Shown one piece after another: positions 12,195 to 33,673 of a DNA stretch of 64,000 nucleotides; position 1 is the stretch's first letter, and each line of letters starts with the position of its first letter. The stretch comes from Schmidtea polychroa (lineage: Eukaryota). The translations under genes and the position numbers were made by a program. The notes below the pieces were generated by a model. The model saw only the letters and a list, made by a program, of their open reading frames with translations. It was not told the origin of the DNA and did no database searches. The stretch spans positions 23,126,001 through 23,190,000 of the forward strand of contig CM097885.1 in NCBI GenBank assembly GCA_044892525.1, in the 5' to 3' direction.

Positions 12195-13665
12195 AAAAGG
12201 CGTCCTTCGGTCGCCCACTGTTCTTTACTTCTGAAAATGTGTAGTCGAAATGAACACTACAAAAACGCCAATCAGTCCGCAGTTCCAAACATGATTAGCT
12301 AACCTGTCGGAATATGATTTTGAACTAAAATATCGGAAAGGCGAAGAACACTCAAATGCAGATGGACTATCAAGATTAAAAAGTATGGTTTGCACCCAGT
12401 GTCAAACAAGACATGAAGAAGCTAAGGAAGGAAAATCAAAGATTAGATATATATATACTATCCAAAGAACAGAAGCTATGGAAAAAGTATGGGAACAACA
12501 ACAAAAGGACATTCGGTTTCGAGAGCTGCGAGAGATATTGGAAAATGGATGTACACGGGAGAAAAAGAATTGTTTTCCTTTTAACGTAAAAAATACACAA
12601 ATTGATGGAGGATTAATAACAGTAGAAAAGAACAAAAATATCTTAATGTTAGTCCCAGAAACATTTGCAGGCCTGTTAACAACAACGCTACATGAAGAAC
12701 TATGTCACATTGGAGTTAAGAAATTATTTCATTATATGGAAAAGATATTTTATTGGCCGAAAATGCAAGAAACAATCCAACTCTGTTTACAATTTTGCGA
12801 GATCTGCGCTAAGAGAAAGATCGATCAGACAAGAACCAAGGAAACATTTATTCCTAGATATAGCTCTGAATTCCTAGAACAGATTGTTATAGATGTGGCT
12901 TACATGGAAATAAACGCCAAAAAAAAATATATGGTAGTAATGGTGGACCGTTTTAGCAAACTGATTTCTTTAACTGCAATCACAAAGCAAGACGAAGGGA
13001 CCATTTTCAAAACAATACTAAATAGTTGGATCTATCGATTTGGAAAACCAAAGAGTATTTTAACAGATAGAGGGCGAAATTTCGAAGGGAATTTCCTAAG
13101 ACAGAAGCTACAGAAACTTGGAATCAAACAGGAATTCAGTTCACCTTATCAGCACCAATCAAATGGTTTAGCCGAAAGAGCCATACAAACGATAAGAGAT
13201 CTTATTACATCAACATTGGCAGGCGGATGTGAAGAGAGAAACTGGCACGAACTTCTACCCAGAATAGAGTTCACTATAAATAGCAGTCGACAAAGTGCTA
13301 CAGGTTTATCACCATTTGAGATAATTTATGGACGGAGTGTTAACCTACACTCTAACCTGAAACAAGCAGATATATCAAGAAGCGAAAGAATCGAAGACGC
13401 GAGATTTAACTCGAGTAAAGCCGCAGACACTTGGAGAGCTTTGGATAAGACAAAGAGGAGCAATCGTGTTTTCGAGGTGGGGAGGAGGTACTCGTACGTA
13501 AAGAGCCGCAGAACAGGCACAAGGATGGTATGCAATACGATGGCCCATATAAAATCGCCAGATTTCTATCACCTCATCGAGTCGAACTACATTCACAAGA
13601 AGGAACGAAAGAAAGAAGAATCGAGTGGCTGAAGAAGTGGAAAAAGTCTTAAGAAGGGGAGAGTT
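12195..13665 (+). mobile_element. Truncated Ty3/Gypsy pol fragment (RNase H end, integrase, GPY/F tail, PPT)
   Basis: LSEYDFELKYRKGEEHSNADGLSR precedes ORF 12385-13632, which has H..LCH/CEIC and DVA, TDRG and AERA DDE motifs. YDGPYKI continues in a shifted frame, and AAGAAGGGGAGAG (PPT-like) lies near 13650. Confidence 0.9.
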
Positions 13666-13818: not shown

Positions 13819-15453
13819 AGTAGGTAGTTATGTGCACTCCAGATACGCCTTGTTTTTTAAATTTTTGTTTTAATTATCGATTACGTAATAATTTTAAAAT
13901 TTGTTTTAATTATCGATTGCGTAATAATTTGAACTTGTTTAAATTATCAATTATGTAATATTTTTAATTTTGTTTAAATTGTTGATTATATAATAATGTT
14001 ATGTAATTATCGATTATGTATTATTATTTTTTGTTTTAATTTTCGATTACATCATAACTTTATTTAAACCGTTGATTACGTCATAAATTTCAATTTAATA
14101 TAATTGTTGGGTTTTTGGTTAATTTAAGTCGGTTCCCTCTGACTCCTCGTGTCCTTTAAATCAAAACAATAACGACCCAACGTAGATTGAAATAGCAAAA
14201 TTCACAATCTTTCTCACAACTTTACAATTAATAATCAAAGTTACGTTTGACCGATTCTCCGCTCGGTGTTGATGCTTTGTAAATAGATAATATTCACCTT
14301 TTATCTCTTTAGATTCTCTTGGCCCACGTTTTCCTCTTTTCTGTTTGATTTGATTCGTTTTCACCTTTTCGTATTCCTATTCTATATCTTCTTTTCCCTA
14401 ATCTCCTTAATTCGTTTTACCTATTCCTAACTCGGTTTCTTCTAACCCTAGCTGAGGCAAAATGCCGATTTGCTCTGATTTTCCTTATCCTCATATACTC
14501 CTCGAAATCGGGATGACAAATGTTTATTGCCGAGCCAGACTTTCACTTGACATTTTCTTCCACGTATCTGCTTCGGCTGTCACCCATAATGGTCCAACGA
14601 ACCTAGATAATTAATGGCCCGTCCGGCCTTTCTACACGCACTATATTCTCCTCGCTCTCTTCCAATTAATCATTGTGTCAAGTTAATGGGCTCAAATCTT
14701 CCTTCTGTTTATTTTTTCTTCTTGTTTACCTCGCTCGGGTTTCTTTCATCTCTCGGGTTCTCCATTGGCTCGGGTTTCCCATTAGCTCGGGTTTTCTATT
14801 AGCCAATTAATTAATTAATTAATTAACGTTTTCTGTTTATACACATTTGAATGCTTTTCGACCTTTCCTAACCATTTTCTGATAAATCCCTAACCATCAT
14901 CTTGTTGACCAATAGCTAATCTGTCCCGTTTTCCCAATTCGATTTCGATGATTTTACAATTTATTGATTTTTCTCGGATTTCCGGATTCTTGCCTTTCAT
15001 AATTGCTTTTCGCATTTTCTAATACCGCTTCCATCACCCTTTCCTTTTACTATCGATTCTGTGCATGATCCCGCTTTTATTTGTCTTTTTTCTTCACTTA
15101 CTTTTTATTTAAATTATTAACCTAAATTTCATTTTAATTTATTTTAATTTACGGACCTCAACATAATAAATTTTTATGTCAATATCCTTGAAATTAAATT
15201 CTCTATAGAATTCTCTATTTGGGGTATGTGAGATTTATAAATAATAAATAAAAATATTATTACATAATCGTTAATTAAAACAAAAAATATATTATTGTAT
15301 AATCAACGATTTAAACAAAATTAAAAATATTATATAATTGATAATTAAAACAAATTTAAATTATTACTTTGTCGATAATTAAAACAAAAATTTTAATTTA
15401 AAAAAAAAGTAGGGGGGGGGTATGTGGATCTGGAGTGAACATAACTACCTACT
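13819..15453. mobile_element. Foldback/MITE-like element with long inverted termini containing AT-rich tandem subrepeats
   Basis: AGTAGGTAGTTATGTGCACTCCAGAT at 13819 is inverted at 15428-15453. ~30-bp TTTTGTTTTAATTATCGATTA units occur at ~13865-14090 and inverted at ~15240-15400. No TSD found. Confidence 0.6.
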
Positions 15454-15582: not shown

Positions 15583-15761
15583 ATGAGTAAGGAATCATCT
15601 GAATAGAAACATTTTACGAAAATAACTGAGACTGAAACCTTCAAATGCAAAGTTTGTGCAAAATTGATTCAGTGCAAGAGATCTTCAAAGAATGGTTTGA
15701 TGATATATTTGTGTACTCAGCTTAATATGAAATTAAAATTTCAGCCTGAAGACTAATCAAG
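15583..15761 (+). pseudogene. BED zinc-finger-like remnant (probable hAT transposase N-terminus) that is the insertion site of the giant element
   Basis: MSKESSE*KHFTKITETETFKCKVCAKLIQCKRSSKNGL resembles the BED pattern W.HF...CKxC; it is degraded. Confidence 0.4.
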
Positions 15762-18700
15762 TGTTGGCGTATGTGGGGAAAAGAAAATATACATGCATAT
15801 CATACACATCAAGCATCATGATTCCGCTCAGGCCATTCCCGCACACACTCCAGATGATCATTCACAAATTCCCACGTATGAGCCCGTGGTGATGTTCCAC
15901 GTTGGTGCTGCTCACACGGGTTGGAAAAAGTCAGCAGGTGAGCCCCTGTCTTAGGACTACTCCTAACCCTTTCTCGGTTCGGGTTCCATGGCGCCCTAGA
16001 AGGTCTTACCCGGTTCTTCGCACAAAAATTCAGTCCGACCCTGGTCCAAGGGGACGACATTTAAGCCTCTACTACGCTTTCAGGATCCTGCTCTTCCGCA
16101 ATTCAACCATAGCAATGCATACATTCAATTAGCACAATCAAAGAAAATAGAACAGTTGTATTATATCGGAACATTAAGATACATCCATCATTATGTAAAT
16201 AAATATAAAACAGTAAAGATTAGGCACAAGATAACGTCAATTTTTCAAGTTTATTCGTAATAGCAGAGAATCGAGACCCGAGAAGAAATTTACTACGAGA
16301 ATGCTTCTCCTTCTGCAAGCATCTCGTCGATGTCAACCGGCAATCGTTGGTTGGAAAGGTACTTAATGCCTTCTGCCGGAACGATGCGAAAGATTTCCTT
16401 TGTGGGAATTGAGTGACTAGACGATATCTCTTTTATGGTGGATTTGGCTGCAGATAGTGACGCTTCGAGTGCAGCCATTGCATCTCGGCGTTTCTGATTT
16501 TTCTCGGCTCGGGTTGGCCGTTTTCGTTTGCGAGATGGCGGAGGGTTGTCCGTGTTCGAGGTGACGACGGGAGCCACTAGGATTGGAGCTAAGATGGGAT
16601 CAGTAGGTCCACCCACCAAAGGTTGATAACCAGATAATGTTGGAGCCGGGACGGGTGGTAGATATGAACCATGTCCTTGGCAGTTTGTGGTGGTCGATTG
16701 AGATACCTGATGATGAAGTGGGAAGACGTTGGTATTCTCCAAGACGGGGAATTCCCGTACCCGCTTGGCCAGTTCCGCCTCCGTATAAACCTTGTGGAGG
16801 CCTTCGGACTGGGCTTTAAAAGTCAATCGTTGATTTCGGCTCTCCTCTAGGAGGCTATCTCTGCGGTGTTCTAGTCGGAGAATCTTACTCGCTCCTCCTT
16901 AATTTGTGGCGGGGAGAACCACGTACCCTCATAGAGATCGATTCTCTTCTTCAATGCCCCGATGTATAGGTGAAGTTGTGCTATGTCGGCATTTTTATCC
17001 GCACACGAGAAGCACGGTCGAAGTTCCTTAGTGTTGCTGGAAGATGTCGTCATTCTAGAAAATCAATCAGTTTTATATCGAGCCAGGACATTTATTTTCG
17101 AATGACACAGTCGAGTTTAGAACATAAGCTGGCCATCTTATCTATCATCTCACCCAATGACAACCCACAGATCTCATCATCCGTTCTCATTCACTGGCAT
17201 TCCACTACAAACATTCAAATTCACTCATACAATCGTTTACGAAAAAGGGAACGGGAATTTGATTAAGAAACGCCTCTGATCTAGGTCCACTTCCTTATCA
17301 TATCGTTATTCTCTAGTTTTCTCATTACTGTCTCAGCTTTCTATCGATGTAATTATACCTAATGACTTTAAAACGAGACCAAAATCCCCGACAACTTATG
17401 GCCAATTATATGTTAAACTACGCTAGGGGAATTATAATAAGAAAATTTAGTTAGAAAACTGAATATTAAATTAAAATTTCCAGTGATTTAAATTATACGC
17501 GGAATTCGTCGTCATGGAGACATTTATTTAGTTGTACATTCTGATTGGATAGCTAGAGGTGTCAATCTTCCGATCGCAATTATAATTGTGCATTAGTTGT
17601 TATTTTTCGAGCAACTGTCTGTACTATTGGAAAAGATTATTGCTTGTCTAGTAAATTGGAGAAAAATCTAATTCCTCACCCTAGTCTGTTGAAAATTTAT
17701 TTCTGAAGAAAATCCATGTATTCACGTGATCATTACATCACCAGCATTTCCTACCAAGCAGTAGATTCATTTGTACACCGCATTACGTGAGAGTGACAGA
17801 AGTGTGTGTATGTACTATGACAGAATAGAACGGATTACATAATCGGCTTTCCGACAAGAAGCAGTAGACAAATTGCGAATCCGATTTATCAGCGCAAGCA
17901 ACCGACGATGTAGCAGAGTGCGGAGTAAGTTGACTTTGTTATCAAATTTCATTTCATGATGTTGACTCAGGATAATGATTATTAGCTGGTTCACTCGACT
18001 ATTCCTACTCACAGAGCGATATAGCATCAATTTAAGTTAGCATTATCAGATAACCCTGTTGGCTGACGGTAAACTGGCTATTGCAAATCAATTGAATACG
18101 GTTATCGTTGACGATAATTTCCCTCGACCTCATAGTAAGTATTCCTAAATTTTTATCGTACCGTGTTTACCTACCCGTCAAAGAGAGATTATTCCCTGCT
18201 GGTGTCTGTGGCTCAAGGACAGAAATTCGACATTCAAGAGTACATCGATGGTGGATGTAACTGCTAACAACCGGGTGACAGATTTAAAAGAAAAGAAAAT
18301 CGAATTCCGCAGAAGGTGAAGACATTATACAATATCTCTGACTGATTCGTGAAATGGTGATGGTAATGCCTCCGAAAAATGCTCTAACGACGACCTGACT
18401 GTCATGAGGATCCTCTTTGCCTGCGTGGATTACCATTAGTTCAATGTCAATATCAAATGTCTATCTCTGTCTAATTCTTGGCCATTTCTAAAATTCGTTG
18501 ACACAAATATTTTGGAATTTTCGCCATAAGAATGGAACTAATCGCAGAACGATCGCACTCGGTGGAAATAATTTTACTCCGCAAACGCATCTCAACTACT
18601 AAGTCTCTTCACCCCTCATGACACACCCAAGAAGGCATTCATTTCTGCCGCCATTCTTGCACCGCCATGAGGGACCAATCGACTCATTCAACTTCAACAT

Positions 18701-19885
18701 CTTTAGCATCATGTATGATTATAAAGCAATAAAATCATGAACAAATAAATAAATATAAAAATTCTTACCCGGCAACCATATCATCTGGCATCCAAGTATG
18801 ATGTCTCCTCCTTCTCAAGCTGCGTACTCAAACATCACTTTTATAACCATCTCATCAATTATGCTCATATTCTCCAAAGATCTAAAAAATCTTCGACATT
18901 GCCTAGATACATTCTACAAAATTTCCTCGTGACATATCTCTGCTGACCACATCATACTCGGATCTTCCAGAGGATACAGCTGCCGGCACCATGAAGAAAA
19001 GATAATTGTCATTTAAATAAAATTTATTCTATGAAATGAGTTTTGTTTTTCATTTTAACCATCAAATTAGCAAACATAAATAATTAATAAACCAAAATAA
19101 GTCACCATACCTAGAGCTTCGAAAAATTGGAACGAATTGAATTTAAAACTGATTTCGTAATAAACTGGTCACTAGTCGTTCGGTAACTTCCTGTAAATGT
19201 AAGTTCTGGAATCTCTGAAGTGATGCTTGTGAGTATGGTTCTGTGGAATATCTGTGATCGGTAATCTGTAATCTGTAATCGTGAAAAATCAAAGTGGGTT
19301 AACTTCTTCTTAAAAATTTTACCTGTAATCGTGAAAAATCAAAGTGGGTGTCTTCTAATTTTTCACGTTACATATATAGTATTTTTCGTCCAATCAGGAC
19401 GCAGCTTGTTTGTGATTTTCTATTTATTATTATTTTTTTATGTTTTTATTATAATGTATTGGGTTTTAATAACTTAACTTATTTCTTATTATTATTTTAT
19501 TTATTTTTCTTATTTTTCTCTTATTTTCTGTGGACTTATTGTTATTTGAATGTAATATAATTTTTTGTTTTAATTAAACTTAGAAATGGTTTTATTTTTT
19601 ATTTATTTCTTTAATTTTCCCGTTTATTTGTTTCACTTTTTTGTTCATTCTATTTTTATTTCATCCGCTGTGTGTCTTAAATCGTTTTATTTCTAAATCT
19701 TAGGGGTTTATTAGGTTTTATTTAATTAGGTTACTTATTCTTATTCTTTTGTTAGTATTTTACTGTTCCTTCCTATTTACTAATGAGATATGATGGTAAT
19801 TTATATATTTCTTATTTTCATTTATTTTTCGAGGTTTACCTTTCTATTCGTTCCAGTTTTCTCCGCTCTGAAATTTAGCCCAACA
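15762..19885 (-). repeat. 3' LTR of giant element (4,124 bp)
   Basis: Collinear with 33699-37822 at offset 17937; by eye ~7 substitutions and two 1-nt indels. Confidence 0.96.
16293..17053 (-). pseudogene. 3'-LTR copy of the LTR-encoded 253-aa ORF, split by a 1-nt deletion near 16889
   Basis: CTTACTCGC here versus CTTACTCCGC in the 5' LTR; this gives the two ORF-track pieces 16871-17053 and 16293-16826. The lesion may be real or a sequencing error. Confidence 0.85.
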
Positions 19886-20119: not shown

Positions 20120-20770
20120 TCACATCATCTCAAGGTTCGAAATGTTATTACTGCCCTGGTTGCTTTTCGGGGATCTTTGGGAGTTCTGGATTGGATGGAT
20201 GGTCGAAGTTGTTGCTGTGGAGAGCTGGATTATAACGGGTATTTGATTAGGAGACCGATTTTGTTGTATTTGGTCGAGTGGGTCTGGTTGTTGGAAATGT
20301 ACTGCTCGTTTATGTATGTTTCGGAATCGCAGGTTCTTTCTTTTGGGTTTCTCGGATAGTGGCTGGTTTCTTTTCCATGTTCGATAGATATCATACGCTT
20401 TCCAGGTGACTAGCGCGCATATGATAATGGTTTCACTGATTGTAGCGTAGAATAAAACTTGGCTTTCTTTTGCTTCTTTCTTTACGATGATTTCCTTCAA
20501 AGATTGTTGATTGGTTGATTCTTGTAGGAGGGTTTCAAGTTGTTCGATTCTTTGGGTTTGCAGGTTGAGTTGCTTTTGGATCTTTTGCCAGACGGCTTTG
20601 TTCCAGCATTGTTTCGGGATATTATTGGAGGGCTTTCTTTCATTTTTCAGTTTGATTAATGGGCTTTGCTGTTTCTCGGGATTCTCCCAGGGTGTTGGGA
20701 TTGACTGCCACATGGATATGCCGTTTATCGCTATCATTATTATTGCCACCAGGGTTGCTCCGAACCTCAT
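20120..20770 (-). CDS. Cargo ORF: 216-aa predicted type-I membrane protein
   Basis: Hydrophobic N-terminus MRFGATLVAIIMIAINGISMW, short coiled coil, second hydrophobic segment VLFYATISETIIICALVTW, then a basic/Q-rich tail. Confidence 0.7.
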   Translation of the reverse strand: MRFGATLVAIIMIAINGISMWQSIPTPWENPEKQQSPLIKLKNERKPSNNIPKQCWNKAVWQKIQKQLNLQTQRIEQLETLLQESTNQQSLKEIIVKKEAKESQVLFYATISETIIICALVTWKAYDIYRTWKRNQPLSEKPKRKNLRFRNIHKRAVHFQQPDPLDQIQQNRSPNQIPVIIQLSTATTSTIHPIQNSQRSPKSNQGSNNISNLEMM

Positions 20771-20824
20771 ACTACTATACGAAAGTTTTATTTACAATTA
20801 TTTACATTGATTATTCATCTTTAA

Positions 20825-21526
20825 TTATTGTCGGGTTTTCTTTTTACGGGTTTTCTCGGATGTTCTCATCACTTTCGTTTCCGCTTTTATTACTCGTTTT
20901 CTTAATTCGGGTAGTACTTCTAATTGTTTGTCTCTTTCGTCTAACTGTTGCTTTAGGGTTATTATTTTTCCTTTTAGTGCTTTTATTTCTTGCGTTGCTC
21001 TTTCGAGGTTTTTATGGTTCATTATTTGTAGAAAATCATTTCCTCTTTCCTCGTCTCCTCCGTCGTCTATTTCTTGGTATTTGTTGTTCATTCGTCTCAT
21101 TATCTCACATTCTTTCTGTTTTTGGTATAGTTGTAGTTGTAGCTCTTTCAGACTTTCTTGGTGTTTTCGGGCCTCGGTTTTCCAATAATCGCTAATCACT
21201 TCATCTGCCTTTCTACTGGCTCTTTCCTGCCATAATTCTCCCGCAATCTTCTCCCAATTTCTTCCTCGTTTTCTCTGCTCGTGGAGCCATTCGTTTTCTT
21301 CCTCCACTTCTTTCTTTACTTCTTCTAACAAGGTATATTCTTTTTTCAATACTTTGATCATTTTTCGATTGTCTCTCCATCTTTCTACTAATCTTTCGTT
21401 TTCTTGTCTCTCCTCTTGTAATTCTTCCTTGATAGTTTTCTTCCTTTCCACCTCCTCAACTTCAATTTCTCCCTCTTCTAGCTCGATTATGGATGTTATG
21501 ATGGGTTGTCCATTTTCAATATTCAT
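20825..21526 (-). CDS. Cargo ORF: 233-aa E/K-rich coiled-coil protein of unknown function
   Basis: Open frame with heptad-like composition; AG acceptor 3 nt before the ATG. Confidence 0.7.
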   Translation of the reverse strand: MNIENGQPIITSIIELEEGEIEVEEVERKKTIKEELQEERQENERLVERWRDNRKMIKVLKKEYTLLEEVKKEVEEENEWLHEQRKRGRNWEKIAGELWQERASRKADEVISDYWKTEARKHQESLKELQLQLYQKQKECEIMRRMNNKYQEIDDGGDEERGNDFLQIMNHKNLERATQEIKALKGKIITLKQQLDERDKQLEVLPELRKRVIKAETKVMRTSEKTRKKKTRQ

Positions 21527-21716
21527 TTTCTATAATATATACATAATTAAAAATTGCGCTACAGTGCGGCTTATACTTATACATTTATATGTAATTTTAT
21601 ATAATCAGGGTTACAGTCCCGTCAATACTTTTATCGTACTATTAATTTTTTTGTTGGGATATAGGTCCCGATTTTTTTTTTTTTTTTTTTTATATTTTTA
21701 TCTCTTCCATTTATCT

Positions 21717-22738
21717 TCATACGAAGGTTTCTTCCTGGCCTACGTATCCTTCATCGCTTTCTACTGATGTTTGTAGTTGGAGTGCGATGGGATCGAATGG
21801 AATGTAGTACCGGGGAATCTGCGCTCTAAGTTCTTGGATTTCGTCTCTTAGCGCTCTTGACACGTTGAGTTCCTCGTCCAACAGGTATGTTAGATACCTG
21901 GTTTCGTCATCCCTTACTTCGATCTGTTTTTCTAATTCTTCCGCTTTTTCGCCGTTTTCCCATTTCTTGATTTCTTTTTCGAGGTTCTTGATGTTTTCAT
22001 CATACATCTTCCTCTCGTTTTCTAATTTCTTGTTCTTACCGGCTAGCACGATATTCCTTTGTTCTAGTGCCCCCTTATAGCCGTTATTGTCTCTTTCAAG
22101 GTCTGCCACCTTATTTACGAGCTCGACGATTCTACCTGACTGTTGCAGGGTCATCTCTTCCATGGCGGTATTCTCCTGTTCTTTCATAGACAGTTTCATG
22201 GCCAGATGCCTTTCAAATTCCATGGCCTTGGTCTGCCAGGTTTGACTACTTTCCTTCTTAGCTCTTCTCTCTGATCAAGATTTTCTTCCCATTTCCCTTG
22301 TTCACTTTCGTATTCCAATCTCTGCGGCAATTCTCTCATTTCTTTTTTAATTTCCCGATGTTGTCTTTTCCACTTTCTGGCTTCTGCTACTAATTGACGG
22401 GTCTTCCTTTCCTCCTTCTGTTTTTCTATTTCCCGCTTCTTATTCTCATCAGTTAGTCTTTTCCTTGACTCCTGTACCAGTTGCTTCAGGTAATGCCCGT
22501 GTGCCTCTTGCCTGGTACTTTCTAATGCTGACCATTTAGCGGCTCTTTTGCAGGCCTCGGCCTCCGCTCGTAAATTCTGCACTAACCACTGGAACTGGTG
22601 GTTTTCCCATTCTCTCGCTTCTTCGAGGTAATTTCGTGTTTGATTTGATAATTGCGCCATCACTTTGGCCCATCTTTCTCTGTGTATTCTACTGATTTTT
22701 ATTTCGTTGTTTGGGGCTTCCGTTTGATCTTGAGTCAT
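21717..22738 (-). CDS. Cargo coiled-coil ORF(s): 180 aa (22196-22738) and 168 aa (21717-22223), probably one ~340-aa protein with a 1-nt frameshift
   Basis: The two ORFs overlap, and the downstream frame is open upstream of its ATG (ERRAKKESSQTWQTKAMEFERH). Confidence 0.6.
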
Positions 22739-22958
22739 CTTTGTCTGAATAACGATATCATTAACTCAACGTCGTACACTTATATCTGTTCTATTATTTA
22801 TTTATTGTTACAATTCGTTATAGGGAGTTGTTTTAGGAGTTTTCCGCTTAAGTTTACCTTTAGTAGATTTGGGGAATTTTTCTACACTACTATATAATAT
22901 TTTACTGGATATATACACCGATATCTACAATTTAGTATATGCAAAATTATTCGTCTCA

Positions 22959-24347
22959 CTACTCTGTTCTACTTTTCCCATCTCGCCTCACTGTTATCTT
23001 TATGTATATGGTATCGTTTCTCGTCATATCTTCTACTTTTCGCTGCAAGATGAAATTCGGTGCTCCGGTTGCTGGTCCTTCTTCTTCCAATGGCCTTTGA
23101 TAACATACGAGGTTTCCCGCTGTATGGAAACTCTGTTCGTGTATACTTTGGTGGTTCATCATTGCGAGGTCTATTTTTGCTTTAAACGGCCATTCTATTA
23201 TTTCGTCGTACAACCCTTTGCATATCAAGAAGAATACTGAAAAATGTGTTCCGTATGCACTTCCATCCCCGTTGGGATATGCTTTCATTTTCATTTTATA
23301 CCCGTTTTTCCATGAATAGAATGCTGGACTTAGTAATGTTGTATCCTTTCCATTTTTGGCTCTCTGCATTTTCTCTTGTACTCCCGTTATTTTCCATATG
23401 TATGGAGCCGTTGGTATTAATTCGTTGAGGTTCATTTCGCTTACTTTTTGATATAGTTCTTTCACCATATTGTTGCTAGTTTCTACTAGATCTGTCTGTA
23501 TCTTTGTATTTGTTCTTGCCCCTACGAATGCTTCTTTCTCCTGTAGTAATTCCTTTACTAACGCTTTTAGCTAGATTTTTTCTCTTTCTAAGTTCTCGGT
23601 TTTCCTTTCGTTTTCTTGTAATACCGTTGAACACATTTCTGTGTGTGTTGCTACGTTCTCTGCTAAATGTTGGGGTAATTCTCCTCGGTGTAATTGTTTT
23701 TGACATCCCCATTTTCCTAATACACACGTTATCTTTTTCTTTCGACATTCTCTTAGATGTTGAGCGAGTTTTATTACTCCGGATTCATCGCATTCGTTAG
23801 GACATTCGCCTCTGAACTCTGTGCATACTTTTTCCTCTTGTACGTTATGGTGTTGACTAGTCAGTTTTCTTCGGGTATCGGTTTCTCCGCAGTATTCACA
23901 TTTTTCCAGCCTTTCTACGCATCGACTTTGATGTTCTTCCTCTTCCTTTGCTTTAATCTCTTCCTGGCAACGTTCGCATTGACTGATTTTATACTCACAC
24001 TTCTCTATATGTTGCCTCACTTCCCATATCACTCCTCGCCCATTGCACGGGGTGTTTTTACATCCTAAATTTGCATTTAACATATCTTTCACTGCCGCTT
24101 TGTCCTCGTTTGTATCTCCCAAACTGGTTATCATGGTTTCTTTACATACTGGGCACCATTGTGGTCCCTTCTTTATTATCTCCTCTATGCATCCCTTGCA
24201 CATCCTACATCCACATCTGGTTTGGTGAGGTTCTTTTAATAAGCTCTTGCATATTCCACACGTTACATGGTTGTGTATTCGAATTGTGGTGGATTTTCTG
24301 ACTTGTTCGACAATCTCTTTGAACTCTTCTCGTTGTCGCTTATCCAT
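22959..24347 (-). CDS. TRAF: Intronless TRAF-family protein (RING, TRAF zinc fingers, coiled coil, MATH/TRAF-C) with one in-frame TAG at 23571-23573
   Basis: RING CGICKSLLKEPHQTRCGHR-like (CGCRMCKGC..CPVC), repeated C-x-C/H-x-C fingers (HIEKCEY, HQSRCVERLEKCEYC, HLRECRKKKITCVLGKWGC), and MATH motifs YIWKI, SPAFYS...GYKM...YPNGDG...THFSVFF...G.YD..IEWPF. 23570-23469 is 34 open codons linking the two ORFs in frame. Confidence 0.92.
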
Positions 24348-24435
24348 TTCTATAATTATACATATACATATATTCGTTACTGGTACAGTTTCGTATTTTT
24401 ATTTACAGTTATTTACATTTTGTTTTAGGTTATAT

Positions 24436-24795
24436 TTATTGGCTGGAAGAGTCGGCCTCTTGTCCGCCCTCTTCCCTACTGGTTAACCATTCTGACCAGT
24501 CTTCTATCTCCTCTCGCTCCATCTCTTCGGCGATTCTCATTAACTCCTCTTCCTGTCCCTGGCTGTATCGCGATATTCGCTCTATTTCTCGCTGCATTTG
24601 CTCTATTTTTATTCGTTGATCTTCGATTATTCTTACATAACTGAATCCTTTATTTAGACTCTCGATTAGATTTCTTTGTACAGCCAGTCCTTGTTCTTGC
24701 AAATTTGAAATTACTTGAGCTAACATTGCACATTGTTGTTTCCACATCTCCTCGGTTGTTGTTTTGTGAGTTACTTCATGGTTTATTTGCTCCAT
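24436..24795 (-). CDS. Cargo ORF: 119-aa helical/coiled-coil protein of unknown function
   Basis: Open frame directly after pol, preceded by TTTAAG|A ATG. Confidence 0.55.
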   Translation of the reverse strand: MEQINHEVTHKTTTEEMWKQQCAMLAQVISNLQEQGLAVQRNLIESLNKGFSYVRIIEDQRIKIEQMQREIERISRYSQGQEEELMRIAEEMEREEIEDWSEWLTSREEGGQEADSSSQ

Positions 24796-24961: not shown

Positions 24962-27900
24962 CTATATACGTGAGTTTGGAGGTCGCTGAGCATTCCAGGC
25001 CTCCACCCACTGTTCCTGCTTGATATTATTTGGTCTTTTTACCCGATGCTGAAAATTTCTGATTCTGGTCATTTCCAGTTCTCCGCGATGCCGTCTATCT
25101 TTGATTATTTTTATTGTTCCCCCCGTTATAATTAAAAATGCCCCTGTTATTATTATTCCGCTGATCCACATCATCTGTTTTACGCTTATAATTTCCGATT
25201 TTTCCTTGTTCGTTATTGTTGATATCGTCTCTGTACTTTTTGGATTACCGCTTTTACTATTTCCTTTTATCATCCCTCGTATCCTTGCTACCTCCTCGTT
25301 CATACCTTCCTTTGCAATCTTTTGTATTTTTTCCATCTCCTCCTCGGATACATAATTGTCCTGATATTTCTCACTGGTTTTCTTGCGCTTTCTTTCCTCA
25401 TCTTTTTCATCATTGATTTTTCTTTTCTTCCCTCTTTTCCCCGGGTATCGTCGACATTCTCTTTCTGGACAGTTTCTCAGGATACAGACCGTATATTCCT
25501 TTGGTGGTTGTTGTTGCGTTACATATTGTAGACAGTTTTCTCCTGGTCCTAGCCTTGAAATACACACTTTGTGCTCTTTTCTTGGTTGAAGCTGTGTTAT
25601 CACTATTTCACCTCCTTTACTCAGGTGTACCTCTTTCCATTTGACTTTTGTTATCTTCTTCCCGTTTCGATGTTGGTACGCTTCTTGTATTCCCACTTCC
25701 GTTATTGGTTCTGCATCTTCATTTTTTAACACTAGTCTCTGATAAGCTCTAGACATACATCTTCCTAATATACACCTTTCTTTTAAATCCCATTCTTCTT
25801 TTAGATCCCATTGTTGCTCTTGTACTTGCTTTTTCTTTTCTTGTTTTAGTTCTTCCTCTTTGTTGTCCTTATTTTCCGTTTCTTTGGCTTCTTTTATCGT
25901 TCTCATTCCTCCCTGGGCTGTTATCATTTCCACCATTGTTAATACGAGTATCATTATCATCATATTTGTCTCCATTTCTTTGTTGGTAAAAAGTAGGCAT
26001 ACCCTCTGTTTTCCAATATTCGTCTTTTCTTCTTGCTTCATTCGGTTTCCCGGGTTATCCTCTTCCTTTTTCGTACTTGCGTTGTTATTTTCTTGATTAT
26101 TCTCCTCTGGTTTCTCGTTCTCTTTATTCCCGTTTCGACTTTTCTCATTATTATCGTCGTCTTTATCGTCTTTATCTTTATCGTCTTTATCTCCCCCGCT
26201 GTCGTTTAAAATGTCGTCCTCGACATTTATATCGTTCAACAATCTGCGATATGCTGTTAGCACTCTATTTCTTGCTAATTTTGCTTCGAATTCGAACTCT
26301 TTTCTGCCTGTTGCTGCATGTCTCTTTCTATTCCATTCTTTTACCAGTTCTCTCAATTGTATCCGACGATGTTTTCCGATTCGCTTTTGTTCGTTTTGAC
26401 TTTGCGTGAATTTGAGGTCTTCCCTGTTTAATACGATCATTATGATTTTCGGAGTGCCTCCTTTTGCTAATGTATTCTTAACCATTGCATTTTCTCCGTT
26501 TTCGTAGAACTCATTTATATTTATTGCATATTTATTGCTTTGTGGTATTTTCCATGTTAACAGTAACTTCATGGCTTCCAAATTTTTCCGTATCGTATTC
26601 CATTGGAACTGTGACGTGTTTTTACAGATATTTTCTACCTCAGTTCTTATAGCATTCTTACAAATGAATCTAATCATTTCCAAGTTTGGTTGTGTTGTTG
26701 CCCAATCCATGGTAGAATTCCCTTCGTTTGATATTTCGTCAAGCCTTGATCCTGATTGATGTAGTATATGTAATGTTTTCGGGTGTATATTTGTTATTGC
26801 TGCATACATCATTGCTGTTTCTCCTTGTTCATTTTTTGCATTAGATTCTTCTCCTAAGTCTCTAAGAATTCTTATGATGGTTATCGCTCTGTTTTCCTTT
26901 GCTGCTAGTATTGCTTGTTGTAATGGTGTTCTTGAATCTTTTGTTGGTATGGTGAACGCTAGTGGTATGAATGTTTTTATTTTACCTATGTCTAAATTTG
27001 TAGTTTGATCTCTTGCGTAGGTGTGTACTGTTTTTATTATTTTTGCCAGTATCGCTTCATCAGATAAATCTAGCATTTCTTCAAAGAACACCTCTTTGGC
27101 TTTGCGTATTATTATCTCTTGGTCTGAGTTTATTATCCTGGCTTTACCTGTCGTTGTTATATCAGTTATTATTTGATCGACTTGTTCCTCAGACTCTCTT
27201 GTTTTTACTTTCTTTATTTTTAACTTTTTCTTGTTTGAACTGTTAATGCGTTCCTCCGCCGTTAGAACTTGAATAATACTGAGGTAAGTTTCTCGAATGT
27301 TATTCATATTTTCCATCATATATAAAACACTCACGGTTTCCCAATATTTTACTTGTACTTTATCGGTGAATTGCGATATGGATTTTTCAAAATTAGTAAT
27401 TCGCTTTCTGATCAGGTGTTCGTCTTTATGGTTTGAGAGTTTTATACCTCGCTGTAATAGTTGATTTGGGATTTCAAATAGGTGATGTCCTCTCATTGCT
27501 TCTCTCATCAAGGTGTTTTCTCCTTTGGTAAATGTTTCGTTTATGTCTACCATATAATCGTTTTTCATCGGGTTTCTCCACGAAATTAGTACACTAGTAA
27601 TTGATATTAATTTCCCTTTGATAGCGGTTAATAGCCCGTCGTACATGTTTCCTATTTCTCTGTTATCCTCGTATGACAATAGGTCTACTAAGGTTATGAA
27701 TGCTTCGGTGCTTTTTCCTTCGATTGCATGATGTAGTGCATTTTTCTGATCGTGGTCTTGTGTGGTTATCTTTGATCCGGTTTCTAGTAATGCTATTATG
27801 ATATCCTTAGTTTTATCTCGATTTGCTGCTATCATTAGTGGAGTATAACCTTGATTGTTTTCTTGATCTGTCGAAATGTTACAATCGCGGAATGCTTCAA

Positions 27901-30900
27901 TTGTTTCTAGTATTTGTTCATTATTACCCACCTTTAAAAGCTTGTGCAGTGGTGTATCTCCGTAGTGGTCTGTGATCGTGAATAATATAGGCCATTGGCT
28001 TTTAACTACCCTGAGCAATGGGTGTGTTCTTTCTCGATTTGCATAGTTTTCTATCATTGTTAGCAGACCGCCCAATATCTCAAAATCTAATCTATCTTTT
28101 GCCCATCCGGGTATTTTAGTTTTTACCTCTTTCATGATTTTCTCGGCTTCTGATGGTTGTAGTCCCAATCGATTGCTTGTTGGTTCGTTTATCTGTTGTA
28201 ACATATTTATTCTATATGTTTGTGATCTTGTTGTTAATGTACGTCCTTCCGGCTGACTGGTGGCTGTTTTCGGTATTGGCTTACATCGCGCCACATTTAC
28301 ATATATTGGCCTTGTAAAGGGATTGTTTACCAATCGTACTCTCACATTGGTTTCTCCGACGAATAGAATCTCATACGGACCTTTGCCGTTTCGTTGCAAT
28401 TTCTTGGTGGTTCCTGGGATCAATTCTGGCGTTTCAATCATCACCCAATCACCGGTTTGAAATGTATGTTGTTTAACGTTTTTCTTTCTATCATGCAGAT
28501 CTTTGTAACTTTCCTGATAAAACTTTATATTCAACCCTGCAGTTTCCCAGATTTCCTGCATTCTTTCCTTGAACTTGGTTACATAATCATCTATTTCCAT
28601 ATATTGAGATATGGGTGGCTGATACTCCAAGTCCATTGGAATATTACATTCTCTGCCGTACATCAACTTGAACGGACTCATCTTTGTGGACGCGTGAATT
28701 GACATTCTGTAAGCCATTAAACATAATTTTATATACTCATCCCAATCCCGTTGATGACGATCGACATAATTTGATAACATTTGAATCAATGTTCCATTGA
28801 ATCTTTCTGTCATACCATTTGTTTGTGGATGATATGGTGATGTTCTTAATTTTGCAATCTTGAAGTAATTGGTTACTTCGCTCATTATTTCACTCATGAA
28901 ATTTGTTCCTTGATCGGTCAGTATTTGTTTCGGCGTTCCATATCGACAACATATTTCCTCTACTAATAGTTTTGCTATTGTTTTGGCTTTCTGATCTGCC
29001 ATGGCGAACGCTTCGGGGAATTTCGTCAAATAATCTGTGATCACCAATATATATATATTCCCTCTATCTGATTCTGGTAGTGGACCGACTACGTCCATAG
29101 ATATCATTGTCATTGGTTCTGCTGGTACTGGCATTGGTTTTAATGGTACCTTCCATTTTGTTCCCGTGTTCTTTCTGGTTGCGCAAGTTATGCAATTTTT
29201 TACCCATTCCGTTACGTCTTCAGTCAATGTAGGCCAAAAATACTTTTGTTTCATTCGTGCTAACGTCTTTTTTGATGACATATGTCCTCCGAGTCTTCCG
29301 TCATGGTATTGTGTTAGCAAATCTTTACGTCTATTCTCTGGAATACACATTAGTCTTTTATCACCATCCATTATCAATAACCAATCCTTTTCTATTATAT
29401 ATCGATGTCGATGTTTATCCATATGCTCTTTCAGTTTTTGATCTTTCTCATATACCTCTGCTTTCCCTGTTTTCACATATTCAATGATTTGCTTCAACTC
29501 TGCATCCTCTTGTTGGTCTTTTCGTAATTGGCAAAAATCTAAATCTTCCGCTACCATCAGACATATCCGTTGCATTTCGTGATCTACTAAATCTGGAAAG
29601 ATAAATCTTGACATACAATCTGCATTTGCATTTGCTCTTCCTGCTTTGAACTTTATGAACGGTGAATATTCTTGTAACTGCATTGCCCATCGCATTAATC
29701 TGCTTGAAGCTTCTTTGTGCTGTCCGAGCCATACTAATGGTTGATGATCAGTGGTTATGCATATTTCGTGACCCCACAACAAATATCGAAAATGCTTAAT
29801 CGCTTGTATTATTGGTAGCGCTTCTCTCTCTGTTACTGAATAGTTTTTCTCATGCTTTTTAAACGTTCTGCTGTAATAGCCGATTACTCTTTCTTTTCCT
29901 TCCTCATCTAGTTGTCCCAATATTGCTCCGGCTGCATATCCACTTGCATCTGTGGCTAATAAAAACGGTTTCTTGAAATCCGGATGTACTAGTATTGGGG
30001 CTTCAATTAATTTATCTCGCAATGTTTCAAAGGCTTTTTGCTGTTCTGCTCCCCAGATAAATGAAATGTCTTTTTTCACTAATTCCTGGATTGGTTTCGC
30101 AATACTTGCATAATTTTTAATGAATTTCCGATAATATCGGCATAATCCGAGGAATTCTTGAACTTGGGTGACAGTTTTCGGTGCTGGACAGGTTTTTATT
30201 TTTTCTATATTTCTTGGATCGGGTTCTTTGCCTTTTGCTGACACTATGTGTCCTAAAAACGTAACTTTCTCTTTTGCCCAATCACATTTTGATGGTTTGA
30301 ATTTCAACTTCCATTGTCGCAATCGAATGAACACGTTTCTGATATCTTCCAAATGTTGTTCGAATGTAGCTGAATATATTAATAAATCATCAATATATAC
30401 CATGCACTGCTTGATCCCGTGCGTGACAAAATTCATGCACCTCTGAAATGATGCTGGGGCATTGGTCAGTCCAAATGGCATTTTCCTGAATTGATACAGA
30501 TCTCGACCCAATGTGAAGGCTGTTTTCTCTTTGTCCTCCTCCTTGACTTTGATCTGCCAATATCCGCTCTTTAGATCTAAAGACGTAAAATATGCGGCCC
30601 CCTGTAGCATAAGCAACATCTCATTGATGTCTGGTAGTGGGTATGTATCTCTTTTCGTTACTGCATTTAGCTTCCGATAATCGATGCAAAATCTCTGGGT
30701 ACCGTCGTTTTTCTTCACCATGACTACCGGAAATTGCCATGGTGAACAACTTGGTTCGATCACTTTTGCATCCAACATCTTTTGTACTTCTGCTTCCGCT
30801 ATCTCTTTTTGTTTTTCCGCTAGTTTGTATGGGCGTAATGCAATCGGGGTTTCGTCTATTAAGCGTATTGCGTGTAATGTGACATCGCATGCTCCCAAAT

Positions 30901-31072
30901 CTAAATCCGAAATAGCGAATATATCTTTATATTCTATTAATAATTGTTGGAGTTTTCCCCTTTCATTCTCTGTTAGCAAGGTACTATCAATTATCCATAA
31001 TTCGTCATCTGTGGTTGATTCGTTCGTGGCTTTTGGTAACTCGATATCCATCATGGGTGTTAATCTACCCAA
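24962..31072 (-). CDS. pol: 2036-aa polyprotein: RT - RNase H - integrase - ankyrin repeats - internal hydrophobic segment - FN3-like domain - C-terminal transmembrane helix
   Basis: RT: RFCIDYRKLN, LDLKSGYWQI, MPFGLTNAP, YIDD (30386-30397). RNase H: TDASG, YYSR, TDHQPL. Integrase: HHCC, DVV/TDQG/TERF, GPY. Ankyrin: GDTPLH, GYTPLMIAA, KNALHHAI, RTPLQQAI, GETAMMYAA. FN3-like: ITQLQPRKEHKVCI. TM: MMWISGIIITGAFLIITGGTIKII. The ORF-track start is a TTG, and the frame continues upstream past one TAA at 31175-31177. Confidence 0.95.
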   Translation of the reverse strand: MGRLTPMMDIELPKATNESTTDDELWIIDSTLLTENERGKLQQLLIEYKDIFAISDLDLGACDVTLHAIRLIDETPIALRPYKLAEKQKEIAEAEVQKMLDAKVIEPSCSPWQFPVVMVKKNDGTQRFCIDYRKLNAVTKRDTYPLPDINEMLLMLQGAAYFTSLDLKSGYWQIKVKEEDKEKTAFTLGRDLYQFRKMPFGLTNAPASFQRCMNFVTHGIKQCMVYIDDLLIYSATFEQHLEDIRNVFIRLRQWKLKFKPSKCDWAKEKVTFLGHIVSAKGKEPDPRNIEKIKTCPAPKTVTQVQEFLGLCRYYRKFIKNYASIAKPIQELVKKDISFIWGAEQQKAFETLRDKLIEAPILVHPDFKKPFLLATDASGYAAGAILGQLDEEGKERVIGYYSRTFKKHEKNYSVTEREALPIIQAIKHFRYLLWGHEICITTDHQPLVWLGQHKEASSRLMRWAMQLQEYSPFIKFKAGRANANADCMSRFIFPDLVDHEMQRICLMVAEDLDFCQLRKDQQEDAELKQIIEYVKTGKAEVYEKDQKLKEHMDKHRHRYIIEKDWLLIMDGDKRLMCIPENRRKDLLTQYHDGRLGGHMSSKKTLARMKQKYFWPTLTEDVTEWVKNCITCATRKNTGTKWKVPLKPMPVPAEPMTMISMDVVGPLPESDRGNIYILVITDYLTKFPEAFAMADQKAKTIAKLLVEEICCRYGTPKQILTDQGTNFMSEIMSEVTNYFKIAKLRTSPYHPQTNGMTERFNGTLIQMLSNYVDRHQRDWDEYIKLCLMAYRMSIHASTKMSPFKLMYGRECNIPMDLEYQPPISQYMEIDDYVTKFKERMQEIWETAGLNIKFYQESYKDLHDRKKNVKQHTFQTGDWVMIETPELIPGTTKKLQRNGKGPYEILFVGETNVRVRLVNNPFTRPIYVNVARCKPIPKTATSQPEGRTLTTRSQTYRINMLQQINEPTSNRLGLQPSEAEKIMKEVKTKIPGWAKDRLDFEILGGLLTMIENYANRERTHPLLRVVKSQWPILFTITDHYGDTPLHKLLKVGNNEQILETIEAFRDCNISTDQENNQGYTPLMIAANRDKTKDIIIALLETGSKITTQDHDQKNALHHAIEGKSTEAFITLVDLLSYEDNREIGNMYDGLLTAIKGKLISITSVLISWRNPMKNDYMVDINETFTKGENTLMREAMRGHHLFEIPNQLLQRGIKLSNHKDEHLIRKRITNFEKSISQFTDKVQVKYWETVSVLYMMENMNNIRETYLSIIQVLTAEERINSSNKKKLKIKKVKTRESEEQVDQIITDITTTGKARIINSDQEIIIRKAKEVFFEEMLDLSDEAILAKIIKTVHTYARDQTTNLDIGKIKTFIPLAFTIPTKDSRTPLQQAILAAKENRAITIIRILRDLGEESNAKNEQGETAMMYAAITNIHPKTLHILHQSGSRLDEISNEGNSTMDWATTQPNLEMIRFICKNAIRTEVENICKNTSQFQWNTIRKNLEAMKLLLTWKIPQSNKYAININEFYENGENAMVKNTLAKGGTPKIIMIVLNREDLKFTQSQNEQKRIGKHRRIQLRELVKEWNRKRHAATGRKEFEFEAKLARNRVLTAYRRLLNDINVEDDILNDSGGDKDDKDKDDKDDDNNEKSRNGNKENEKPEENNQENNNASTKKEEDNPGNRMKQEEKTNIGKQRVCLLFTNKEMETNMMIMILVLTMVEMITAQGGMRTIKEAKETENKDNKEEELKQEKKKQVQEQQWDLKEEWDLKERCILGRCMSRAYQRLVLKNEDAEPITEVGIQEAYQHRNGKKITKVKWKEVHLSKGGEIVITQLQPRKEHKVCISRLGPGENCLQYVTQQQPPKEYTVCILRNCPERECRRYPGKRGKKRKINDEKDEERKRKKTSEKYQDNYVSEEEMEKIQKIAKEGMNEEVARIRGMIKGNSKSGNPKSTETISTITNKEKSEIISVKQMMWISGIIITGAFLIITGGTIKIIKDRRHRGELEMTRIRNFQHRVKRPNNIKQEQWVEAWNAQRPPNSRI

Positions 31073-31540
31073 TCGTTCATTTTCATATATGATTTTATCT
31101 TCTTCCTCGAAATTCGTGATGTTGATTGGTATTTCTCCTTCTTCATTTATCGTTATTATTTCTCGTGCTAATGGTTATTCTCGTCTTTTTTCGAATGATT
31201 TACTTGGTTCAAAGATAGCTTCTCCTTCCATTCCCCATACAATTCTTCGTGGAATATAATTACCCATCAACCCATAGTTTTCGTCGATTTTAAATTATCT
31301 ATTTGGGGTAGTAACAATTATCTATATGGTCGTATAAATTATCTATAGTTATTACTTATAATATCGATAGGTCGTTGTCGGTTGCTGCTTATTACCCCCC
31401 TTATTTCCTTAATCCTTTTACGCGGTTCCGCTATTTTACTTAATCTTTCGTCTCTGTTTCCCCTTACTCGGTTCTAATCTGAACCAAAAGTCAAACTCGT
31501 TTAACCGGTTTAAACCACAAAAATCTGTAGAACTCCGTCT

Positions 31541-31550
31541 ACTCACCTGG
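31541..31550 (-). promoter_or_regulatory. Consensus 5' splice donor CAG|GTGAGT upstream of pol (candidate major splice donor)
   Basis: The plus strand reads ACTCACCTGG; this is a perfect donor consensus in a non-coding leader. Its function is inferred. Confidence 0.45.
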
Positions 31551-31809
31551 CGTCCCCTTTAATCAATTAATTATTTCTTCTTTATTCATTATCTAATCAC
31601 ACTTATTCTTTATTTTCAATTATCTTAATTCCTTTTCCTTTTCTGTTTCTCCGTTTCCACTAAAAGAATTTTACTATCATCTTCTACCAGCTCGTTTAAT
31701 CCTCTCTAAATTCGAATTCTCATATCCAAATTCAATTCATTTCTAACTAGCTTAATATCCTATCTCATTATCAACTTAGATACTATCCAATCATTTTCTA
31801 GGCCTTTAC

Positions 31810-32208
31810 GACTGGCTGGCACTTTTCACCAGCTCAGTTTCAAATTCCTTGACCGGCTGGACTTCTCGACAGCTCGGCCTTAATATCTCCGACTGGCTGG
31901 ACTTTTCACAGCTCAGTTTCAAATTCCTTGACCGGCTGGATTCTCGACAGCTCGGCCTTAATATCTCCGACTGGCTGGACTTTTCACAGCTCAGTTTCAA
32001 ATTCCTTGACCGGCTGGACTTCTCGACAGCTCGGCCTTAATATCTCCGACTGGCTGGACTTTTCACAGCTCAGTTTCAAATTCCTTGACCGGCTGGACTT
32101 CTCGACAGCTCGGCCTTAATATCTCCGACTGGCTGGACTTTTCACAGCTCAGTTTCAAATCCCTTGACCGGCTGGACTTCTCGACAGCTCGGTCTTAATA
32201 TCTCCGAT
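31810..32208. repeat. Tandem array of a 79-bp unit (~5 copies; each unit has two related ~40-bp halves)
   Basis: GCTCAGTTTC recurs at 31832, 31911, 31989, 32068 and 32147. Confidence 0.93.
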
Positions 32209-32788
32209 TCAGCATGCTTCCACTTCTATCCTATCTTTATTCTAGACTGTCATTTTCCTACTTTTACTTTTTATTTGTCGACCTAATCTGTGCCGCTTGA
32301 GAGTGTTTCCCCTTTCCCCCCTTGCTCAAAACGCAAAACGATCGCATTGATCCATTTCCACATTAGTATGGTGATCAGCCATACCGCAGAAACTTTTCAA
32401 TATTCGCGATGGTACCTCGCCTTACATCTCTTCCTCGGGGTGATCGGTTATCCCTTCCCAAACAGTTTTTCAAATATCGTACCTCCCGAAGGTGGCTCGG
32501 TTTATTCCCCCTTTAATCTTATGGTGGGACTAGTTCCACTTTATATAATCAAATTGAATTTTTAAATACCCTTTCTTCATGGTGAAAATTATGATATAAC
32601 AAATCGAATTATAGCTACGCAAAAATGAAATAAACACACAAAATGATTTATTGATTATTCAGCTCATACTACATGCGATATATGATACTCTTATTAAAAC
32701 ATTAACCAATCAAATCAAAAAAAATTAAAATGTTTAGTCTTAATTGTTCAATTCAGCCAAATTCTCCTCACCGAGTGACGATCGCGTG

Positions 32789-33253
32789 TTAGTGGAAGTA
32801 TACCGTGTGTGTCTCTTTTATCACACACGCACATAAAGAACAATGGGTTAAGTTGGCGACGCATTCATCACAATGGCTTAGGTGTCCGCAAGGTAATATC
32901 AACATTCTGCCAGGTCGTGTCTTACAAATATTACACCCTAACCCTTCAATCAAGACTCGTATCCTCTTAGATAAAGTTTTTACTTGCTCGCGTATTCTTA
33001 TGTATTCGATATTCAAGACGGGATCGTCAAGACGTTGCTGAAGCCATTGGTAATGAATAGACAAGTCGGTGTTGGTATTTGTTGATCCTAATCTGTCGGT
33101 TAGAAAGTTTTGTTTGGATATCAGCGGTGCGTTGTGGCGTTGTTGCTCTAAGAGTTCTATTTGTTTCAGTTTCTCTTTTAATGTCTTTATTGAGTCGTTT
33201 TCTATATCGATGAATCTGCTTAGCTGTTGTAGATGTTGCCTAGCTTCTGACAT
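32789..33253 (-). CDS. Cargo ORF: 154-aa coiled coil plus C-terminal IAP/MDM2/MYLIP-type C3HC4 RING (probable E3 ligase)
   Basis: CNICKTRPGRMLILPCGHLSHCDECVANLTHCSLCACVIKETHTVY matches the IAP-class RING spacing, with the RING at the extreme C-terminus. No BIR seen. Confidence 0.85.
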   Translation of the reverse strand: MSEARQHLQQLSRFIDIENDSIKTLKEKLKQIELLEQQRHNAPLISKQNFLTDRLGSTNTNTDLSIHYQWLQQRLDDPVLNIEYIRIREQVKTLSKRIRVLIEGLGCNICKTRPGRMLILPCGHLSHCDECVANLTHCSLCACVIKETHTVYFH

Positions 33254-33673
33254 ATCTGAATAAATGTATGGTTATTATTTGTTCCTACTGGTATTATCAA
33301 TAATACTATTATGTTTGCATTTAATAATCGTTTATCTTTCATTTGTTATCGTTTCTAGCTTTTGTATTTTATTTAATCTTTAACAATCCCTCCGTCGTAT
33401 TTTCGACTTTAATCATTTAATTAAAATTAAAACAAAAATAACTAATTCCCGTTTTCTTTTCTCATCATACTCAATCATGTTCCTTCATACTCCTTTAGAC
33501 TCGTTTTCATTCATGCATACTCTATTCAAACACATATAGTTCGTATTGTCCTTCTGTCACACGATAAAATCAAATCAATTTAGTTGGGTCCCGATTCTAT
33601 TTATCATAATCCATTAAATCACTCAACCAACACATCATGACACAATAATAGGCCATCAAAACAAATCAAATTC

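Follow-up and report, generated by a model that had tools for sequence, protein, structure and literature searches.

Giant gypsy-like retroelements of the Burro/GYPSM1 type, found in dugesiid planarians, represent the closest described systems to the element considered here. According to PMC6431247, which proposes a proviral nature for them and puts Burro elements with MATH at thousands of copies, they carry RING, MATH_TRAF_C, BIR and ankyrin domains together with an in-frame env. Burro RNA is reported to rise on SMEDWI-2 loss (PMC8532177), and PMC11410931 mentions Burro once. TRAF proteins themselves are known as cellular TRAF2/3/5-type adaptors and E3 ligases, among them planarian Smed-TRAF-2A/B (PMC7586133), and also as homologues carried by iridoviruses and giant viruses, which provide a precedent for TRAF as cargo. 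Planarian TRAF repertoires had been said to be expanded in the initial annotation of this locus, and three papers bear this out, mostly in the form of partial or MATH-only transcripts: 121 MATH domains have been counted (PMC6109357), as have 282 TRAF contigs, most of them partial or without RING and zinc fingers (PMC7586133), and the expansion has been called unresolved (PMC8807557). Here, we describe a TRAF gene that lies inside an LTR element in a 64-kb stretch of Schmidtea polychroa DNA (the window), and consider what is to be made of the single TAG that breaks its reading frame.

The element occupies 15762-37822 on the minus strand, spans 22,061 nt and encloses the TRAF gene. Features of a gypsy-type LTR element are present, namely a pair of LTRs with TG...CA ends (5' LTR, 33699-37822, 4,124 nt; 3' LTR, 15762-19885; both on the minus strand), a CAAG target-site duplication (left copy 15758-15761 as read on the plus strand, right copy 37823-37826) and the order RT-RNase H-integrase. 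Across 4,120 aligned columns, 7 substitutions and 2 single-base indels separate the two LTRs, a divergence of 0.2%; substitutions have accumulated at about 0.00085 per site, and the insertion is therefore young. Just inside the 5' LTR is a primer-binding-site-like 18-mer (33674-33691, minus strand), which we take to resemble the 3' end of tRNA-Pro; no tRNA gene was found in the 64-kb window. Read in the sense direction, and with all ORFs on the minus strand, the interior of the element begins with a 154-aa accessory ORF bearing a C-terminal RING (32789-33253; zf-C3HC4_3, E 1.9e-8), followed by a non-coding tandem array of five 79-nt units (31809-32207) at the place expected for gag, env and protease. 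Next come a 5'-truncated pol (24962-31228) with RT, RNase H, integrase, ankyrin repeats and a long tail, a 119-aa accessory ORF (24436-24795), the TRAF gene (22959-24347) and four more ORFs. These last are two overlapping charged ORFs of 180 and 168 aa (21717-22738), a charged accessory ORF of 233 aa (20825-21526) and an accessory ORF of 216 aa (20120-20770) with two hydrophobic stretches seen by eye. No family was found over the curated cut-off for the 119-aa and 233-aa ORFs, and no Pfam family for the 216-aa ORF.

Several features of the element deserve mention in their own right. Some 1,100 residues of pol lie beyond the integrase (24962-28300, minus strand), with two ankyrin blocks, an acidic/Asn-rich linker and hydrophobic stretches; similar ankyrins in the relative P0152 stand before the protease, unlike their post-integrase place in the window pol. 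Shortly past the 168-aa ORF stand 20 consecutive A (21672-21691, minus strand), which may represent a simple repeat or else a tail left by a captured message. Within the LTR is a 253-aa ORF (34230-34991, minus strand; in the 3' LTR its counterpart carries a single-base indel, at 16889) that shares 76% amino-acid identity with an ORF at 47747-48508 (plus strand), across two LTR families and with no Pfam family. The 53, 27 and 139 differences between this pair at codon positions 1, 2 and 3 point to purifying selection on the LTR ORF.

Likened to the published descriptions, the window element resembles Burro in kind, and this anatomy, together with its AT-rich flanks, also points to a planarian host. 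Multi-kilobase LTRs, tandem repeats, RT-RNase H-integrase with ankyrins, a RING ORF, MATH_TRAF_C and accessory ORFs are common to both, and the nearest long pol relatives of the window element have an in-frame protease and env before the RT, as described for Burro. These relatives came from a search of long proteins (3,554-5,000 aa), which returned 7 matches among 661 candidates, six of them 48-52% identical to pol over residues 60-930. In those scanned, a fusion glycoprotein (env) and a protease precede the RT in frame in 4/4 and a Gag zinc knuckle is present in 3/4. There are also clear differences. Burro exceeds 30 kb whereas the window element measures 22,061 nt, and Burro has Gag, env and protease in one polyprotein with pol whereas the window copy has none of the three. 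BIR and BCL2 gave no Pfam match in the element ORFs scanned and may lie in the missing part. Of most interest to us, Burro is described as having its MATH domain either within the polyprotein or in an accessory ORF upstream, but the window element has a whole RING-zinc finger-coiled coil-MATH TRAF as a separate ORF downstream of pol; none of the 7 long polyproteins contained TRAF or MATH, save for one match at the level of a coiled coil. MATH in Burro was already known, and what seems new is a complete, separate TRAF gene in a giant retroelement, of which we found no description in the open literature searched.

The TRAF frame comprises 462 codons and is broken at codon 259. It begins on the minus strand with an ATG at 24347, runs for 258 codons to a TAG (23573-23571) followed by CTA (23570-23568) and AAA (23567-23565), and continues for 203 further open codons to a terminal TAG at 22961-22959, which is followed directly by TGA (TAG TGA, 22961-22956). 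The 169-aa MATH ORF (22959-23468) starts at an in-frame internal ATG (23468) and is probably not a separate gene. This agrees with the initial annotation, which had described a RING ORF of 258 aa and a MATH ORF of 169 aa as a single frame broken solely by the TAG before CTA AAA, at the same coordinates. A codon model trained on the other ORFs of the element preferred the TRAF frame in 13/13 windows between 23800 and 23080, upstream of the stop as well as downstream. The alignment with the relative P0003, gap-free over residues 24-279 of the window protein, rules out an intron at this place, and the claim that the gene has no introns accordingly stands on this alignment and on the codon bias that continues through the frame.

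With X in place of the internal stop, the 462-residue product shows the features of a TRAF: an N-terminal RING, TRAF-type zinc fingers, a coiled coil and a C-terminal TRAF-type MATH. The RING is matched by Pfam zf-C3HC4 above its cut-off (residues 30-68, E 2.6e-5) and the MATH by TRAF-mep_MATH (PF21355, residues 336-450, E 2.1e-25) and PF22486 (E 4.2e-25), with a Pfam MATH extent of 316-453. For the zinc fingers, a PDB sequence search aligned residues 27-155 with TRAF6 and 22-142 with TRAF5 RING-zinc-finger constructs, and there are 12 invariant Cys/His columns; Pfam zf-TRAF did not match the window protein at E 0.01 but does match the relative P0020. An AlphaFold model (mean pLDDT 79.7, pTM 0.35) contains a long helical stretch at 232-306 which, together with an alignment to TRAF3 251-453, indicates a coiled coil (TRAF-N) ahead of the MATH. 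The break at 259 falls about 27 residues into the helix, consistent with the earlier placing of the stop just inside the coiled coil. The gene can thus be called a complete, retroelement-borne TRAF, as first proposed, in that its domains run from RING to MATH within the LTR element, although these domains do not form an uninterrupted frame, given the TAG at codon 259. No second TRAF piece was found elsewhere in the 64-kb window. The domain order is that of the cellular TRAFs, of which TRAF3 and TRAF2 rank first among the PDB sequence matches (E about 2e-26). In contrast to these, the window TRAF is intronless, inside LTRs, A-rich in coding bias, in a clade of its own and cut by a stop. With the virus homologues it has in common a host TRAF on a mobile genome, and 49 viral models, many named TRAF-like, match at E up to 0.001; these come from large DNA viruses, however, and are 9-25% identical in alignments.

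Its nearest relatives are P0003 (469 aa, a full TRAF), P0020, P0022 and P0070, which are 36-42% identical to the window protein; among the 150 matches listed from the full HMMER scan, the best identities were 25-43%. Word-indexed searches returned 0/1,944 candidates at E 1e-10 with the read-through protein and 1/3,786 at E 1e-30 with a 13-sequence profile, which are weak blanks given that the method missed known relatives. In a tree of 23 hand-picked rows the window TRAF and the four relatives form one clade (100/99), and the same five members are grouped with a support of 98 in an N-terminal tree built on the best 34 of 91 passing rows. The initial annotation had called for a phylogeny of the MATH domain with host TRAFs. 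A MATH-only tree was built by a quick method on 109 rows including that of the window protein (of the 150 matches listed, 36 were dropped as short or longer than 700 aa and 6 had no match), and it placed the window TRAF no further than in a weak group with P0003. Scored for the residues that A-rich coding favours, the five clade members also take the first five places among 92, from which we infer that the four relatives are element-borne; composition was flagged for P0020, P0022 and P0070 and may add to the clade support. P0020, P0022 and P0070 lose similarity at differing points, as decaying copies would, and Atlas clusters for P0003 were generic TRAF only. Alongside two other divergent TRAF groups, whose composition is ordinary, the clade falls in a group of 14 rows (96/95). 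It is nested in neither of the two, a position that would fit the capture of a host TRAF specific to one lineage and a long subsequent evolution in elements.

At the site of the stop, all three informative relatives (P0003, P0020 and P0022), which lie on both sides of the window's branch, are open and ungapped, with 6-7 of 20 residues identical just past the stop (260-279; 7/20 for P0020 and P0022); homology to P0070 ends at 238, short of the site. Among the 150 best matches aligned from the N-terminal part, no alignment ended within 15 residues of the break, and it should be borne in mind that a full-length query favours full-length matches. The window TRAF has a terminal branch length of 0.75 in the 23-row tree, and at 36-42% identity the open relatives therefore leave room for a family-wide stop. 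At that identity, the codon that stood at 259 before any lesion cannot be told from the relatives.

The TRAF stop is accompanied by other damage. Homology of pol to the long polyproteins begins at 31228-31222, and the 2,050-2,580 residues that precede this point in relatives (Gag, env and protease) are unmatched here: nothing like gag, env or protease turned up upstream of 31228, although 31000-33700 was searched permissively, and Pfam found no protease or dUTPase remnant in three frames of 31173-31414. A premature TAA interrupts pol at 31177-31175, within the homologous stretch, and the alignments of 6/7 long polyproteins cross it. Its context on the minus strand (TAA CCA TTA, 31163-31186) is one base off the type I readthrough motif; as a readthrough site it was taken as chance, since the upstream frame closes within 40 codons and homologous sequence is lost there. 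Downstream of TRAF, the codon signal leaves the 180-aa ORF near 22245 and is taken up by the 168-aa ORF, so that the two are probably one gene with a frameshift; an Atlas look-up of the 180-aa ORF gave nothing usable for confirming this.

Judged by the LTR divergence, the internal ORFs together should have acquired 0.45-0.55 new nonsense codons, with P(at least one) of 0.36-0.43 and P(at least 2) of 0.07-0.11, and about 0.06-0.07 post-insertion stops are expected in TRAF alone. One stop is therefore unremarkable. The value for at least two, taken together with the expectation for TRAF alone, nevertheless means that some lesions are probably older than the insertion and stem from a defective parent. 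Where damage is partly inherited in this way, the presence of the TAG in a few sibling copies alone would not show readthrough. The best explanation of the copy, which together with a nonsense lesion in TRAF we consider likely, is that it is a non-autonomous, defective deletion derivative of a Burro-like element.

Three types of readthrough context are distinguished (PMC13517186, PMC4132726): type I, UAG CAR YYA; type II, UGA CUA or UGA CGG, often with 3' structure; and type III, UAG GGV/GUA/GAU with a downstream pseudoknot. The TRAF stop, UAG-CUA-A, fits none of these, and type III is rejected on sequence context. It has in common with type II the CUA right after the stop but differs in that the stop is UAG rather than UGA and the fourth base A rather than G; CARYYA, GGV and a stem-loop are all absent. 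The earlier statement that a stop followed by C or CUA is leaky holds in so far as CUA belongs to type II, but this class needs UGA. PMC4132726 gives 1.5% readthrough for UGA-CUA alone and, for OPRL1 reporters, a 3-fold drop when the stop is UAG in a CUAG context, which leaves about one-third of the UGA level. By analogy, UAG CUA A would be expected to leak only slightly. Stimulatory structure at the stop was rejected on folding z-scores (+0.37, -0.10, -0.65, +0.24 and -0.88 in 5 windows of 60-150 nt), none of which stands out; one 153-nt fold reached z -1.68, with 7/200 shuffles as stable, but 3/47 control windows also lay at z -1.5 or below.

Splice-acceptor-like signals bear on how the element may express its genes. 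A T-rich tract with a TAG ends 2 nt before the TRAF ATG (24348-24375, minus strand; 10/20 T) and could function as an acceptor. Such YAG sites, mostly after a T-rich tract, are also seen on the minus strand at 34992-35020, 33254-33280, 22739-22770, 21527-21555 and 20771-20800. By a rule picked after inspecting the sequence, a YAG ends within 8 nt of the ATG at 6/7 ORF starts that follow a non-coding spacer (shuffle P 0.0009; binomial P 3.5e-4 against a spacer background of 0.198), and at 5/7 of these starts T also makes up 40% or more of the 20 nt ahead of the YAG, vs 2/94 internal Met codons. The related LTR at 44856-49056 retains such a signal before its ORF. By their appearance, these sites could serve as acceptors in the splicing of subgenomic messages, either in cis or to a spliced leader in trans. 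At the MATH-half ATG a YAG also lies 7 nt upstream, yet its T content is just 3/20, much as at the other two starts after lesions (3/20 and 5/20). With the signal at the TRAF ATG and no T-rich tract at the MATH-half ATG, the design of the element would therefore treat TRAF as one gene. In the five inter-ORF spacers we also observed 7 TGTAA[AC] motifs in 718 nt, often accompanied by AATAAA, whereas coding sequence has 1.07 per kb; taken with the YAG sites, this suggests subgenomic splicing or operon-like processing of the accessory genes.

Given these data, we regard it as likely that a full-length TRAF carried by the element has suffered an ordinary nonsense lesion at the TAG (23565-23573 with its context). 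Of the two possibilities first raised, the better fit is damage to this copy or its lineage: the informative relatives are open, the copy is damaged elsewhere and no recognised readthrough signal is present. The other, programmed readthrough, would have the family retain UAG-CUA so that most ribosomes yield a RING-only protein and a few the full-length TRAF. The rarity of the context speaks for it, since CTA follows only 1.5% of possible nonsense sites, as do the intact MATH half with its element codon bias and the residual UAG readthrough in the OPRL1 reporters (PMC4132726). A following C is much commoner, however, at 18-19% of such sites (about 19% precede the first triplet of some listed class), and C also follows the pol TAA and 2/9 terminal stops. 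An intact downstream half is expected anyway between LTRs differing by 0.2%, the stop is wrong for the CUA class and is followed by A rather than G at the fourth base, no stimulatory structure accompanies it, 3/3 informative relatives are open, and the element is broken elsewhere by the pol TAA, the absent gag/env/protease and the probable frameshift. Programmed readthrough is thus poorly supported and we think it distinctly improbable. We give equally little credence to a wrong base call over a sense codon in the genome. The two single-base LTR indels and one N gap (60597-60768) allow that the sequence may hold errors, but the adjacent pol frame is unbroken over 2,070 codons, so that the local error rate is low, and the event is a substitution, of which real examples have accumulated at the per-site rate given above.

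A functional split, in which a RING-only protein is made alongside a separately started, TRAF1-like MATH-only decoy from ATG 23468, would find some encouragement in the A at -3 and G at +4 of this ATG, in its nearby YAG, and in the published Burro-like elements, whose MATH domain is part of a polyprotein or of an accessory ORF (PMC6431247). We nevertheless consider it very unlikely, as neither a spacer nor a polyadenylation-like gap precedes the ATG, its 3/20 T compares with 8-12/20 at five other ORF starts, a YAG is equally near in 24/94 internal Met codons, and the 34 codons between stop and ATG are conserved coding sequence in relatives. Rescue at the RNA level, whether by A-to-I editing of the UAG or by splicing it out, seems extremely unlikely: planarians are reported to have ADARs (PMC8797187), but there is no stable duplex around the stop, the colinear alignment with P0003 leaves no room for an intron, and purines dominate ahead of the TAG, which sets it apart from the acceptor-like sites. 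Under the nonsense-lesion reading, TRAF would be an accessory gene of a Burro-like giant gypsy element, and working elements would express it, probably through a cis-spliced or spliced-leader message of its own, as a single full-length RING-zinc finger-coiled coil-MATH protein that may tune host TNF-receptor/ubiquitin signalling and cell survival. The TAG would have arisen post-insertion or in a defective parent of this copy. If transcribed, the gene would now yield for the most part a RING-zinc-finger fragment of 258 aa, which lacks the receptor-binding MATH as well as most of the coiled coil, and passage through the stop would amount at most to a small passive leak.

The stop itself is probably of little consequence, and the interest of the locus lies in a complete TRAF as a separate gene of a giant retroelement, in a distinct clade and with acceptor-like signals. 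It is plausible that element-borne TRAFs contribute to the planarian TRAF count, and the chance that element-borne TRAF and MATH genes make up a sizeable share of the counted transcripts we put at a little under even. If many counted 'TRAF genes' are element copies, then the expansion, as well as RNAi and expression results, would need re-reading. A broader proposal, that the Burro-like family keeps UAG-CUA in all copies as a recoding switch, giving RING-only and full-length protein at a set ratio from a spliced message, and that mobile TRAFs form much of the planarian expansion, appears decidedly remote. The string 'transpos' has 0 occurrences in the main text of PMC7586133 and PMC8807557, and in searches of the open literature by title and abstract opening no paper joining the TRAF expansion to Burro elements was found.

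Elsewhere, the window holds other mobile sequence. A solo LTR of a related family (44856-49056, plus strand; 4.2 kb, with patches of 70-76% identity and a GCTG target duplication) sits inside the LTR of a small decayed gypsy-type element at 44789-53919, whose repeats at 44789-44856 and 49057-49253 match 53660-53919 and whose RT/integrase frames (49925-52709) are broken. An integrase-bearing ORF fragment at 12295-13632 (plus strand) adjoins 13819-15453, where 35-36-nt arrays are inverted (13855-14001 and 15256-15390), and DDE_3 and Tc5/DDE_1 transposase fragments lie at 44330-44761 and 55180-56344 (minus strand). Smaller repeats comprise a 16-nt array of 11.8 copies (484-672) and a 22-nt array (41414-41539) with an inverted counterpart about 12.8 kb away (54278-54324). 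The N gap mentioned above has 172 N and is near a TA run, and the flanks of the TRAF-bearing element are AT-rich.
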